The notes: a model not told the origin generated them from the letters alone. A DNA stretch of 64,000 nt from Desulfosoma sp. (GCA_037481835.1 JBBFKW010000006.1:128001-192000), one strand, 5' to 3'. Shown: positions 48,356 to 64,000, numbered from the stretch's first letter. Translations and numbers: made by a program.

Positions 48356-48523
48356 ATGGAACGGACAATTAAGAAAGCCCCTTATTCATCCCCGAAGCTC
48401 ACAACATTTGGAAACCTCAAAACCATTACCTTGTTTGGAGGAGGCAGGAGGCATTTTCGAGACCGCTTCAAGCCGCATGATGAAAAACCCGGGGCGAACA
48501 GTCCCCAGCCTTTTACTTCCTAA
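48356..48523 (+). CDS. Lasso-type RiPP precursor peptide (55 aa; absent from ORF track)
   Basis: Manual translation MERTIKKAPYSSPKLTTFGNLKTITLFGGGRRHFRDRFKPHDEKPGANSPQPFTS; AAGGAGG RBS at 48341; YxxPxL..G....T leader; C-terminal Ser; upstream of kinase, RRE and B2 genes. Confidence 0.88.
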   Translation: MERTIKKAPYSSPKLTTFGNLKTITLFGGGRRHFRDRFKPHDEKPGANSPQPFTS

Positions 48524-48669
48524 GCGTTTTGAATCGCCAGGCGATTGGCCAACACTTTTAGGAATCTTACCTCCTGATGCTTGGAAGGAAGCTGCCCGAT
48601 CTTCCCGCGCCGCGAGCATTCCGCTCAGGAGCATGACCCTGCTCCAAGAGGCGACCGGAGCGACAGCTC

Positions 48670-49689
48670 ATGCACACAGAACATAATTATAAGACAATGG
48701 CATATGAAGCTTTCGGTTTAACTATAGGCTCTGACATGGTTATTCCGGAACTAGTGAAATCTGAAAGCAGCCGTTGGGATATTCATGTTCGCAGAGGGCC
48801 TGTTTTTTACAGACTCAAAGGGATTGAAGAAGACGGGTACAAGTGTGCCATGACGGCCAATGAAGCCTATTTGGAATGGAAGATTGTGGGACGCTTCGCC
48901 ATTCTAAACGGCAAACACATCACCGTGGACCCGGCCCCGGGTGTGGACGAATCGGTCATTCGGGTTCCCTTGCTTGGCATGGTCATGGCCGTTGCCCTCA
49001 TGCAGCGCGGGCTGCTGGTCCTTCACGGGAGCGTGCTGGGGATGGGAAAAACGGCCGTCGCTTTTCTCGGAGACAAGGGTTTTGGGAAATCCACGTTGGC
49101 GGCGGCCCTCTATGCTCGGGGCCATCGGCTGATTTCCGATGACATCCTGGCCATCACGGCTTCATCGGCCAAACGCCCCAGGGTTTGGCCGGCCTTTCCT
49201 CAATTCAAGCTGTGGCCCGAAGTGATCCCCTCGATTTTCGGCTTGAAGGCAGAAGAACTCCCCAGGGTCCATCCGGAAGCGGAAAAGCGGATCCTAACGG
49301 TAGCGGAACGCTTTGAGAGACAAGTCCTGCCGCTCAGCCGCATCTACATCCTGGACGCCGGGCCGTGTGCTCGAATAGAATCTCTCCCGCCCCAGGAAGC
49401 CCTCATGGAGATTATCAAGAATTCCTACTTGGCCCGGTTTTCGGACCAGGCGGACCGAAGTGCAGAGGCTCTGCAACTGCGCGGCTGTTCGAATCTTCTC
49501 AAGTTCGCATCCGTCTTCCGATTGATTCACTGTTTCAGCCTTTCCAAGCTGGAAGAACTGGTGGAAATGGTGGAGGAGCACGCGGGAACAGCAACTCATT
49601 CAACCCGCGGCTTGCAACGGAGGGTCGTGGAGGAACCAGTCAGCGTGCCGGAAGCGGCGTCGTCTTCCGCCGGGAGCGCACAGCCTTGA
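48670..49689 (+). CDS. HPr-kinase-like protein (lasso precursor kinase type)
   Basis: LHGS, GDKGFGKST (Walker A), LISDD; start 48670 or 48697. Confidence 0.85.
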   Translation: MHTEHNYKTMAYEAFGLTIGSDMVIPELVKSESSRWDIHVRRGPVFYRLKGIEEDGYKCAMTANEAYLEWKIVGRFAILNGKHITVDPAPGVDESVIRVPLLGMVMAVALMQRGLLVLHGSVLGMGKTAVAFLGDKGFGKSTLAAALYARGHRLISDDILAITASSAKRPRVWPAFPQFKLWPEVIPSIFGLKAEELPRVHPEAEKRILTVAERFERQVLPLSRIYILDAGPCARIESLPPQEALMEIIKNSYLARFSDQADRSAEALQLRGCSNLLKFASVFRLIHCFSLSKLEELVEMVEEHAGTATHSTRGLQRRVVEEPVSVPEAASSSAGSAQP

Positions 49690-61384: not shown

Positions 61385-62568
61385 GAGCCCTCGTGGTCGC
61401 GCCCCAACCATTTTTTACGCCGCGAGGCACCCCGTTCAGCGTCTATTACCGGACGCTCGTCGCCTCTGAGTTGGGCCTGAAAATCGACCTGCTGACCTAC
61501 GGCGAAGGCATGGATGTGGACATTCCCGGAGTCCGGATCATCCGGATCCCACATCCGAGGATTTTGCGAAACGTCAAGGTCGGACCGTCCTATTCAAAAC
61601 TTCTTTTGGATATCCTGCTCTTTTTTCGAGCCGTCGCTCTCATGGCATCGGAAAAATACGACATTGTGCATGCCCATGAGGAGGCTGTCTTTTTCTGCGA
61701 GTTCCTGAAACCTTTTTTCGGTTACAAGTTGATTTACGACATGCACTCCAGCCTAAGCCAGCAATTGACCAACTTTCAGTTCACCTCATCCCAAGTGTTG
61801 ATCGGATTATTTTCCCTTCTGGAAAAGAGAGCCTTGCGGCATGCCGACGCGGTCATCACCATTTGCCCGGATTTGGCCGAACAAGCATGCTCGGTAATGC
61901 GGAATTGCACCAAACATTTTCTGATCGAAAATTCCATCTTCGAACCGGTGCGTCTATCGTCCGCTTCTTCTCAAAAAGGAAAGCTCGCAGAGGACCAAGT
62001 CCCTGATCCGGAATCCCTGCCAGCGGGAAGAGCCTTGCTCGTTTATGCCGGCACCCTGGAGCCCTATCAGGGGCTGGACATCCTCATTCCGGCATTTCAA
62101 ATCGTCCAGGCCGAGGAACCGCGAGCGCTGCTGCTGATCGTGGGGGGCACACCGCCACAGGTCGCTTACTACCAGTCATTGGCTGAGCGATGCGGAATTT
62201 CGGAGCATGTGCTTTTTACAGGCCGCGTGTCCCCTGAACTCGCAAAACGCTACTGCGCCAAGGCGACGCTTCTGCTTTCCCCCAGGTCTGGCGGATCAAA
62301 CACCCCTTTAAAAATCTACGAACAGCTGGCCAGCGGCATTCCCCTCGTGGCCACCCGAGTCCATTCCCATACCCAGGTTCTCACCGATGAAGTCGCTTTC
62401 CTTGTGGATCCGGAGCCGGAAGACATGGCTCAAGGGATCTTGACGGCCCTGCGATCCCACGACTCGCGGAAGCGTATTGCAGAAAAAGCCCAATGCCTCT
62501 ATCAGATGAAGTATTCCCGACCGGTTTACGTGGGCAAGCTGAAACGATTGTTGGAGTCTCTCCGATAA
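61381..62568 (+). CDS. GT4 glycosyltransferase
   Basis: HAHE, YDMH, YAGTL..YQG, PLKIYEQLASGIP. Confidence 0.9.
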   Translation: MRALVVAPQPFFTPRGTPFSVYYRTLVASELGLKIDLLTYGEGMDVDIPGVRIIRIPHPRILRNVKVGPSYSKLLLDILLFFRAVALMASEKYDIVHAHEEAVFFCEFLKPFFGYKLIYDMHSSLSQQLTNFQFTSSQVLIGLFSLLEKRALRHADAVITICPDLAEQACSVMRNCTKHFLIENSIFEPVRLSSASSQKGKLAEDQVPDPESLPAGRALLVYAGTLEPYQGLDILIPAFQIVQAEEPRALLLIVGGTPPQVAYYQSLAERCGISEHVLFTGRVSPELAKRYCAKATLLLSPRSGGSNTPLKIYEQLASGIPLVATRVHSHTQVLTDEVAFLVDPEPEDMAQGILTALRSHDSRKRIAEKAQCLYQMKYSRPVYVGKLKRLLESLR

Positions 62569-62569
62569 C

Positions 62570-64000
62570 ATGTGCGGTATCGCCGGCGTGGCCGCTTTTA
62601 ACGGCGGCCTCCCTCCCAATGAAGCGCAACTGAAATTTATGTGCAATACCCTCATGCACCGGGGGCCCGACGGCGAGGGAATGCACTTGTGTGACGGGGT
62701 GGCGCTGGGCATGCGCCGCTTGGCCATTATTGACTTGAAGGGGGGCAACCAGCCCATTTTCAATGAAGATCGCACCATCCTCACGGTTTTCAATGGAGAG
62801 ATTTACAATTTCCGTGAATTACGGCGCACCCTCGAAGCGGCAGGCCACAGATTTCGAACCCAAAGCGACACGGAAGTGATCGTCCATGCCTACGAAGAAT
62901 ACGGCATGGATTTTCCCACGGTACTCAATGGCATGTTCGCCCTCGCCTTGTACGATTCGGCGCGAAAGGCACTCTACCTGGTCAGGGATCACGTGGGAAT
63001 CAAGCCTCTTTACTATTCGTGCAGCCAGTGCCACCTGGTTTGGGGATCGGAAATCAAGGCCGTTCTCGCTTCCGGTTTGGTGCGGCCCGAGTTGAATGTG
63101 GATGCTTTGGGGGAATTCTTGTGCTGGGAATATATCCCCGGGAAGAAAACCCTGTTTCAGTCCATCCATAAACTGGAGCCCGGTCACGTCCTTCGCCTGG
63201 ATGTCCCAAGCGGCAGCATATCCATCCATAAATTCTGGGATCTTCCCGCTGCCGAGGAGGTGGAGACCGCCGACATGCGTTCCTGGGAAGATCGCATCGA
63301 CCAAAAGATCAGGGAATGCGTGCGGAGGCAGTTGGTCAGCGATGTCCCCTTGGGAGCGTTCTTGTCGGGAGGCGTGGATTCCTCGATCATCGTGGCGGCC
63401 ATGGGGCCTTCCAAGACTTTCAGCATCGGGTTTGACGACCCCACCTACAACGAGCTCCATTGGGCGAGGAAGGTGGCCCGTCACCTAGGGGTCGATCACA
63501 AGGACGACGTCATCCGCCCGCACCTCCTCTCCTTGTTTGAACACCTGATCGATTTTTTGGATGAGCCAATCGGAGATTTTTCCATCTTTCCGACGTACTT
63601 GGTATCGAAACACACGCGGGAGCACGTCACCGTAGCGCTCAGCGGCGATGGCGGGGACGAACTCTTCGGCGGTTACGAGACCTACGTCGCCCAGGAACTC
63701 TCCCGCATCTATGAACGGATTCCCCGGTTTCTCCGTGAACGGGTCGTGGAGCCTTGCGTCCGGGCTTTCCGTCCCACTCCCGCCAAAAAAGGGCTCATCA
63801 ACAAGGCCAAGCGTTTCGTGGAGGGAGTCGAACACCCGAAGAGTCTGGCCCATGCACGATGGCGCCTCTTTCTTGGTGAGGCCCTCCGCGGAGAGCTTTT
63901 TACCGAAGAGTCTTCCCAGCTGCTGCAGACGCCGCCCGGGGGTCATATCACGGACCTTTTCCTGCGTTCGGGGATGCGTGACGACGTGGATCGATGTCTC
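62570..64000 (+). CDS. asnB: Asparagine synthase (glutamine-hydrolysing)-family amidotransferase, runs off window end
   Basis: Manual translation from ATG 62570: MCGIAG, HRGPD, RLAIID, NGEIYN, SDTEV, LSGGVDS, SGDGGDELFGGY; not in ORF track, consistent with no stop before the edge. Confidence 0.9.
   Translation, partial: MCGIAGVAAFNGGLPPNEAQLKFMCNTLMHRGPDGEGMHLCDGVALGMRRLAIIDLKGGNQPIFNEDRTILTVFNGEIYNFRELRRTLEAAGHRFRTQSDTEVIVHAYEEYGMDFPTVLNGMFALALYDSARKALYLVRDHVGIKPLYYSCSQCHLVWGSEIKAVLASGLVRPELNVDALGEFLCWEYIPGKKTLFQSIHKLEPGHVLRLDVPSGSISIHKFWDLPAAEEVETADMRSWEDRIDQKIRECVRRQLVSDVPLGAFLSGGVDSSIIVAAMGPSKTFSIGFDDPTYNELHWARKVARHLGVDHKDDVIRPHLLSLFEHLIDFLDEPIGDFSIFPTYLVSKHTREHVTVALSGDGGDELFGGYETYVAQELSRIYERIPRFLRERVVEPCVRAFRPTPAKKGLINKAKRFVEGVEHPKSLAHARWRLFLGEALRGELFTEESSQLLQTPPGGHITDLFLRSGMRDDVDRCL

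Follow-up and report, generated by a model that had tools for sequence, protein, structure and literature searches.

Lasso peptide biosynthesis requires a macrolactam synthetase (C), an ATP-dependent, Cys-less homologue of AsnB, and the binding of a leader by the recognition element (RRE) of peptides made on the ribosome and modified post-translationally (RiPPs) is a textbook pair. In pseudomycoidin the C-terminal Ser is phosphorylated and hexoses are then added onto the phosphate in a PsmN-dependent manner (Zyubko et al. 2019, PMC6993621), and in the bsf cluster of Bradymonas BsfK phosphorylates the precursor and BsfB1/B2 remove its leader (Duan et al. 2023, PMC10368454). A more recent paper, on the lpp cluster of Paenibacillus alginolyticus, describes linear polyphosphorylated peptides (LPPs), in whose clusters the precursor is accompanied by an HprK-like kinase, an RRE, a leader peptidase of signal-peptidase type, an MsbA-like pump and an NTP-transferase, and a cyclase is absent (Popov et al. 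2026, Nat Commun, PMC13381572). Co-localisation with capsule or polysaccharide loci in Bacilli, reported in the same text, where a role in biofilms is named as untested, is the only published hint to the function of phosphorylated lasso peptides and LPPs. LPPs are one of the two families described there as restricted to Bacillota. Here we describe a locus of Desulfosoma sp. in which a related set of peptide genes is followed directly by wza and wzc. It lies in a stretch of 64,000 nt (GCA_037481835.1, JBBFKW010000006.1:128001-192000; in our numbering G000:C6:128001-192000), referred to as the window, and the peptide cassette is situated in the middle of a 216-kb contig.

From 48356 to its end the window holds a single co-directional array on the + strand. 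Our explanation of this array, to which we give slightly better than even chances, is that it consists of two modules, a cyclase-less cassette making a linear cationic phosphopeptide and a self-sufficient polysaccharide locus. The first module (48356-53602) would be a paeninodin/Bsf-type cassette of precursor (A), kinase (K), exporter (D), nucleotidyltransferase (N), RRE (B1) and leader peptidase (B2), in the order A-K-D-N-B1-B2 and without a macrolactam cyclase, and the second (53631 onward, about 30 kb) a self-sufficient Wza/Wzc locus of the Wzx/Wzy type, the cassette having presumably been placed between the PilZ/LuxR regulators of the polysaccharide locus and wza. The likeliest product would be a B2-dependent counterpart of the linear polyphosphorylated peptides reported from Bacillota in 2026.

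As a lasso system the cluster is incomplete: the genome, 99.37% complete in 38 contigs, is without a lasso cyclase. Three strong Asn_synthase matches are present in it, on contigs C1, C6 (the asnB of the locus itself) and C17, the fourth match being 23 bits over 43 positions. The three paralogs score 394-466 bits with TIGR01536 (cut-off 267) and 150-203 bits with the lasso cyclase model NF033535 (cut-off 525), and all of them start with Met-Cys-Gly, so that the Cys nucleophile of the glutaminase is kept. For comparison we used related loci obtained by scanning an alignment of N over 185,579 species genomes (80 loci kept, 28-38% identity), the open reading frames (ORFs) of which were searched by iterated profiles; 19 of their 21 full-length cyclase-type frames have Ser-Gly-Ile at the same site, the frames of L068 and L094 starting differently. 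When the cyclase of the nearest relative was used as a query, only the three AsnB paralogs were returned from the genome (29-31% identity), and no fragment or pseudogene of a cyclase was found in 42901-64000 apart from asnB, the region upstream of the precursor included. The asnB of the locus was considered as a displaced cyclase and rejected on its Met-Cys-Gly start, its passing of TIGR01536 and its score far under the NF033535 cut-off. A preliminary description of this DNA had spoken of lasso-type machinery, which is borne out for the precursor leader, B1, B2, the kinase and the nucleotidyltransferase, and fails for the cyclase, absent from both locus and genome.

The precursor itself is the second line of evidence. 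Its residues Y10, P13, L15 and T25 have the -17/-14/-12/-2 spacing of lasso-type leaders (YxxPxL with Thr at -2), a spacing from which the cleavage site follows by the rule given in PMC10368454. By the -2 rule Phe is position 1 of a predicted core of 29 residues (3324.64 Da monoisotopic) with pI 10.8, six Lys/Arg and a C-terminal Ser; no Ser precedes position 23 of the core, and its first acidic residue, Asp (D36), is at position 10, at a distance from Gly28-30 that corresponds to a 7-9-membered ring. A lasso core has Gly, Ala, Ser or Cys at its N-terminus and Asp or Glu at position 7-9. Within the protein collection the precursor has a single orthologue, P0065 (80% identical), which comes from a 21.6-kb contig that also holds an 83%-identical B2. 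In P0065 Asn replaces D36, the sole acidic residue at ring distance; of the first 21 core residues 20 are the same, as is the terminal Phe-Thr-Ser. This speaks against a ring and suggests that selection acts on a linear peptide. Exactly two precursor-like genes came out of a motif scan of the whole genome, the one in the window and an orphan on another contig (C1:31163-31315, + strand; L127:8163-8315). The orphan encodes 50 residues with a near-identical leader and a basic core that has Asp at position 9 and a C-terminal Ser; it has a strong ribosome-binding site, and a hairpin lies 3' of the gene. There are no peptide-maturation genes near it, and the stretch is unmatched in three genomes of the same genus, which lack the enzymes, the downstream genes being matched there. 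It is probably a second substrate, acting in trans. All three precursors (window, P0065 and orphan) thus end in Ser, and related precursors are situated before K in other loci too.

The cassette looks alive, because all six of its ORFs are intact, catalytic residues are conserved, the enzymes (K, B1, B2 and N) are each single-copy in the genome and a second precursor with the same leader exists. C83 and H118 of B2 are invariant across 25 homologues; D137 and D139 of N are invariant in the nucleotidyltransferase alignment (A2), and we infer, although not from an alignment, that they are equivalent to the Asp pair of PsmN. The tailoring set of kinase, PF14907 nucleotidyltransferase and acceptor Ser, predicted from sequence, is of the paeninodin/pseudomycoidin/Bsf type. 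In the proposed sequence of events B1 would bind and present the YxxPxL leader, the HprK-like kinase would phosphorylate a Ser, most likely the C-terminal one, and the PF14907 enzyme may add a hexose onto that phosphate; B2 would cleave after Thr(-2)-Leu(-1), and the MsbA-like pump would export a linear, strongly cationic peptide of about 29 residues. The precedent on which the preliminary description had leaned, phosphorylation of the C-terminal Ser of pseudomycoidin followed by glycosylation, agrees with PMC6993621.

With paeninodin, pseudomycoidin and bsf the cassette shares the split B1/B2, the HprK-like kinase, the PF14907 enzyme and the ABC exporter and, in the precursor, the Y(-17)/P(-14)/L(-12)/T(-2) leader as well as the C-terminal Ser; it differs from them in having no macrolactam synthetase anywhere in the genome, in its gene order and in a ring-position Asp that is not kept in the orthologue. 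With the LPP clusters it shares a precursor with a YxxP-type leader, the HprK-like kinase, a discrete RRE, the PF14907 enzyme and the MsbA-like exporter, the lack of a cyclase and the co-localisation with polysaccharide genes. The leader peptidase of LPP clusters is, however, an archaeal-type, SipW-like signal peptidase I (LppS), whereas the window uses a lasso B2; no SipW-like signal peptidase is present among the ORFs of the cassette, each of which (48356-53602) falls in another family. The longer LPP leader consensus is also absent, only YxxPx[L/V] being shared, and the LPP phosphosite is Ser3, whereas the core described here has no N-terminal Ser and ends in one. While LPPs are described as restricted to Bacillota, this genome belongs to the same GTDB order as a Desulforhabdus metagenome-assembled genome (MAG). 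The best solved relatives of the RRE are 9x90_B, which is lasso-type (49.5 bits), and TbiB1 (44 bits), as against 22.6 bits for 9x8z_B. The PDB entries 9x8z_B and 9x90_B are presumably those of the Popov 2026 paper. A full-text literature search, with subscription journals outside its reach, found no description of a B2-dependent, cyclase-less cluster. New here is that a cyclase-less cluster of B2 type, related to the kinase/nucleotidyltransferase peptide families, occurs outside Bacillota and heads a wza operon; co-localisation with capsule genes was already known.

Several observations weigh against a linear product of a working cassette. Judged from their sequences, the precursors still look ring-competent, both by the distance of Gly28-30 to Asp36 and by the Asp at core position 9 of the orphan. 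The protein search returned no nucleotidyltransferase orthologue from the 21.6-kb contig that is the source of the 83%-identical B2 and the 80%-identical precursor, which may be due to a different gene order, a broken gene or the contig end. Neither B2 nor N was found in the three same-genus or the eight same-family genomes searched, so the cassette appears to be a recent arrival and its function in this host is a predicted one. In a quick maximum-likelihood tree the window N is sister to that of L029, from the Desulforhabdus MAG (39% identity, 99% in the Shimodaira-Hasegawa-like approximate likelihood ratio test), and both fall in a clade of 10 rows (96%), some of which have a cyclase and some do not; since L029, the nearest reachable relative, has a cyclase-type gene, the cyclase may have been lost here recently. 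The hexose step is uncertain as well, because LppN was without activity in the published heterologous system (PMC13381572).

Some of these points would also fit a true lasso system, its ring closed by an unrecognised enzyme, either an AsnB paralog, such as the co-directional one that follows 9 kb downstream in the locus, or a cyclase whose DNA is missing from the assembly. Such a system would account for the canonical leader spacing, the ring-compatible Gly28-30 and Asp36, the Asp at core position 9 of the orphan and an RRE nearer to lasso B1 proteins than to 9x8z_B, as well as for the usual order of the relatives, B1-B2-C-A-K-D-N, and the cyclase of L029. We nevertheless regard it as unlikely, as all three AsnB paralogs have retained the Cys of the glutaminase and score above the cut-off for asparagine synthases but far under the one for the cyclase, the genome is nearly complete with the cassette well inside a contig, the orthologous precursor has Asn at position 36, and no cyclase pseudogene is present.

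The arrangement of the locus is given in Table 1, where genes are identified by Pfam and NCBIfam profile matches and bits are given against model cut-offs where stated. All genes named in the preliminary description were found at their place on the + strand, and the short or overlapping gaps that it had reported are confirmed by overlaps of 1 nt (K/D), 20 nt (B1/B2) and 4 nt (stop of the 279-aa frame and start of the GT4 gene), the widest gap in the array being the 146 nt from precursor to kinase. Two corrections are needed: the long ORF at 60739-62568 is the GT4 glycosyltransferase and not asnB, and the polysaccharide locus runs about 19 kb past the window. The asnB gene, which starts at 62570, extends 459 nt beyond the window end and is followed in that part by genes for an epimerase, pyruvyl- and acetyl-transferases, a Wzx-type flippase, a PMT_2 GT-C enzyme and further GT4 enzymes.

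Table 1. Features of the peptide cassette, the polysaccharide genes and the region upstream; positions are counted from the first nucleotide of the window (GT, glycosyltransferase).
Feature	Coordinates	Strand	Evidence and remarks
PilZ-domain protein	43399..44595	+	Pfam PilZ 33.7 bits; first gene past end of same-genus synteny (~42995)
Small PilZ-domain protein	44884..45258	+	Pfam PilZ 38.8 bits
Response regulator, LuxR/GerE output	45279..46196	-	Response_reg 91.8 bits, GerE 49.8 bits
LuxR/GerE-type regulator	46326..47315	-	Pfam GerE 32.4 bits
Precursor peptide (A), 55 aa	48356..48523	+	translation, AAAGGAGG ribosome-binding site; NF033528 weak, 25 bits, under cut-off
HprK-like Ser kinase (K)	48670..49689	+	PF07475 32.2 bits (cut-off 33.3); TIGR04352 39 bits
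MsbA-like ABC exporter (D)	49689..51521	+	profile matches; without peptidase domain
PF14907 nucleotidyltransferase (N, PsmN/LppN-like)	51524..52795	+	PF14907 175 bits
PqqD-type RiPP recognition element (RRE, B1)	52825..53130	+	PF05402 66.7 bits; NF033536 75.1 bits (cut-off 80)
Lasso-type leader peptidase B2 (transglutaminase-like Cys protease)	53111..53602	+	NF033537 85.7 bits (cut-off 33)
B2-wza junction, 28 nt	53603..53630	.	ribosome-binding site of its own (AAGGAG)
Wza outer-membrane polysaccharide export lipoprotein	53631..54653	+	Poly_export and SLBB; TIGR03028 157 bits (below cut-off); lipobox
Wzc co-polymerase / tyrosine autokinase	54706..57084	+	Wzz, GNVR, AAA_31; TIGR01007 142 bits (cut-off 108)
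Polyprenyl glycosylphosphotransferase (priming enzyme)	57155..58573	+	TIGR03025 429.8 bits (cut-off 295)
GT2, ArnC/PgfS-like polyprenyl-phosphate sugar synthase	58557..59564	+	NF007986 207 bits (below cut-off); PF00535 117 bits
Second GT2, more divergent	59540..60511	+	PF00535 36 bits
279-aa soluble protein	60545..61384	+	no Pfam/NCBIfam match; no membrane segments predicted
GT4 glycosyltransferase	61381..62568	+	true start ATG 61381
AsnB-type amidotransferase, glutamine-hydrolysing, 629 aa	62570..64000	+	TIGR01536 466 bits (cut-off 267); NF033535 203 bits (cut-off 525)

The gap between B2 (stop at 53600-53602) and wza (ATG at 53631) is exactly the 28 nt that had been reported for it, and the terminator scan showed no terminator-like site or hairpin in it. 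This junction is not an assembly artefact of the genome, because independent data, a Logan contig of another study (run X3, record 4), span 51380-54263 with 0 differences. The promoter and terminator scans stayed at the level of shuffled sequences (7 vs 6.9 and 19 vs 20.5, respectively), the sigma-54 -24/-12 pattern was at chance (24 matches vs 26.8 expected), no Rfam family matched in 43000-55000 at E <= 1, and thus no c-di-GMP (cyclic diguanylate) riboswitch, the spacer between precursor and kinase folds no better than its shuffles (z = -1.04), and GC content does not separate the peptide half from the polysaccharide half. The cassette and the polysaccharide genes probably share one transcript, and peptide and polymer would then be made together.

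The polysaccharide half resembles group 1-type, Wzx/Wzy-dependent Wza/Wzc loci in having Wza, Wzc, a priming enzyme, GT2 and GT4 enzymes, a Wzx-type flippase (L006:16346-17992; NF007773 226 bits, cut-off 273), pyruvyl- and acetyl-transferases and an AsnB-type amidotransferase. It differs from them in the peptide cassette that forms the 5' end of the array and in that no Wzy was recognised, the multi-pass membrane candidates, none of which matched a Wzy family, being the flippase-like and PMT_2 proteins. An XrtA/PEP-CTERM exopolysaccharide system was considered and rejected, its equivalog models of the TIGR030xx series, among them those for EpsE/F/G and amidotransferase 1, all being under their cut-offs and the only exosortase of the genome lying on contig C23. 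The two ArnC/PgfS-like GT2 enzymes (58557-60511) and a nine-segment PMT_2 GT-C protein (L006:14755-16428) look, from their sequences, like a periplasmic glycosylation module that would use a polyprenyl-phosphate sugar.

Wzc homologues (E <= 1e-40) are present in 66 of the 96 genomes of the order. In the five closest Wza/Wzc loci, four from other genomes and the paralogous locus on contig C1 of the same genome, tblastn (E <= 1e-6) found none of K, D, N, B1 and B2. Upstream of wza two of these loci (L121 and L122) have histidine kinases, sigma-54 activators and a NusG-like gene. In L124 no other gene separates PilZ, a minus-strand response regulator of LuxR type, wza and wzc, and the regulators are the same as those upstream of the window cassette: the small PilZ protein has a 34%-identical homologue at the equivalent site upstream of wza and the response regulator (45279..46196) a 43%-identical one immediately 5' of it, in a locus with no cassette. 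From this arrangement the cassette looks like an insertion between the regulators and wza.

Seen from the peptide genes, a strong polysaccharide marker (Wza, Wzc, priming transferase, Polysacc_synt_2 or DUF3473 deacetylase) is situated within the flanks of nine of the 80 N loci, in at least six phyla, and 71 are without one. In L046 (Methylomirabilota) sugar genes enclose a complete lasso cluster, by the ORF calls about 20 nt away from it at one end and overlapping it by 4 nt at the other; in L104 (Nitrospira) a PEP-CTERM protein borders one side of the cluster, and Wzi, two Wza-like genes and Wzz border the opposite side; the order in L038 is D-N-Wzc, wza and wzc are divergent from B1 in L063, and K-N adjoins a WecA-like gene, CpsB, Wza and Wzc in L108. 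Since 5.1% of positions in this one genome lie <= 10.5 kb from a marker, nine of 80 gives a binomial p = 0.022, a hint whose significance is overstated, the loci being related and the background coming from a single genome. The link of peptide and polysaccharide genes recurs but is optional, and the fusion of the two proposed in the preliminary description does not hold as a conserved unit.

A broader reading would take kinase/nucleotidyltransferase peptide cassettes, with or without a cyclase, as a widespread accessory module of exopolysaccharide loci, whose cationic peptide with a phospho-sugar on the C-terminal Ser joins the matrix. We consider this improbable. If it were true, the peptide could attach non-covalently to the acidic, pyruvylated polymer, or the glycosyltransferases of the locus could extend or capture it, and a ribosomal peptide would have a structural or organising role in a biofilm polysaccharide instead of being an antibiotic. 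The association known from Bacilli is found here in a Gram-negative lineage, with a different leader peptidase, no cyclase and the cassette first in the wza array under PilZ/LuxR-type regulators, and with related loci in at least six phyla the cooperation of peptide and exopolysaccharide becomes a directly testable question. A looser link than a covalent one, by co-expression or by a role in the matrix, is plausible because such cassettes recur beside polysaccharide genes in several phyla.

The preliminary description had gone further and proposed a peptide phospho-linked to sugars of the neighbouring enzymes or anchored to the polysaccharide, the conjugate leaving via Wza. The tight one-strand junction, the placing of hexose on peptide phosphate by PsmN-type enzymes, the ArnC-like GT2 and GT-C (PMT_2) enzymes of the locus and the cassettes embedded in polysaccharide loci of several phyla (L046, L104 and L038), with nine of 80 against a background of about 5%, all speak for it. 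However, nothing in the sequence favours a covalent link between peptide, sugar and polymer: a lipid-linked priming enzyme, a flippase, Wzc and Wza are all encoded in the polysaccharide half itself, which does not need a peptide as primer, the cassette brings an exporter of its own, and no enzyme joining peptide to polymer was identified. Together with the empty Wza/Wzc relatives and the 71 marker-free loci this makes such a conjugate speculation, and we hold it to be quite unlikely.

Among the 80 loci K is present in 58, B1 in 55, B2 in 40, D in 35 and an AsnB-like gene in 23. Twenty have N, K, B1 and B2 and no AsnB-like gene within their flanks, most of them from one Pyrinomonadaceae clade and thus not independent; genome mining that requires a cyclase misses this sizeable B1/B2/K/N group. 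A large clade, with L030, L039, L040, L043, L049 and about 15 more loci (mostly Pyrinomonadaceae), has a conserved layout in which N, K and B1 are on one strand and B2 is a few kb off on the opposite one, again without an AsnB-like gene. L041 has the order B2-A-K-D-N and a Gly-rich basic core without an early acidic residue. A radical SAM enzyme is present in L058 and L076, the latter also having a Peptidase_S24 gene; in this Acidobacteriaceae MAG (L076:9986-16511) N, Peptidase_S24, K, RRE and radical SAM/SPASM are embedded among polysaccharide genes that include Wza and are accompanied by a PEP-CTERM protein, a set that looks LPP-like, outside Bacillota. In a Desulfobacteraceae MAG (L080:7208-11149) a DDE transposase is directly 5' of B2-K-N, no RRE, cyclase or exporter being detected, and this is probably a broken cassette. 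The cassette's B2 has two close homologues (83% on the 21.6-kb Logan contig, 66% on a 54-kb NCBI contig) and its N has one (70%); within the order N is present in 15 of 96 genomes and B2 in nine of the 61 searched.

That the window cassette is likewise a decaying, non-functional remnant of a horizontally acquired lasso cluster, its cyclase lost in a rearrangement and its position in a variable island beside the polysaccharide locus due to chance, would suit the absence of B2 and N from all eight family relatives searched, the loss of same-genus synteny from about 42995 onward, the unusual gene order and the example of L080, but has little probability against six intact ORFs with conserved catalytic residues and tightly coupled junctions, an orthologous precursor that keeps its core, a second precursor maintained elsewhere in the genome and a sequence that is identical in samples from independent studies.

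Two more polysaccharide loci are present in the genome, both without peptide genes: one on contig C1 (~93-126 kb), with the paralogous Wza/Wzc (~45% identity) and its own AsnB, and one on C23 (~10-19 kb), beside the exosortase. The window itself also encodes, at 37032-41273 and just 5' of sigma-54 regulator genes that are syntenic, a competence protein of ComEC type; it has 1413 aa, and its N-terminal part is unusually long.

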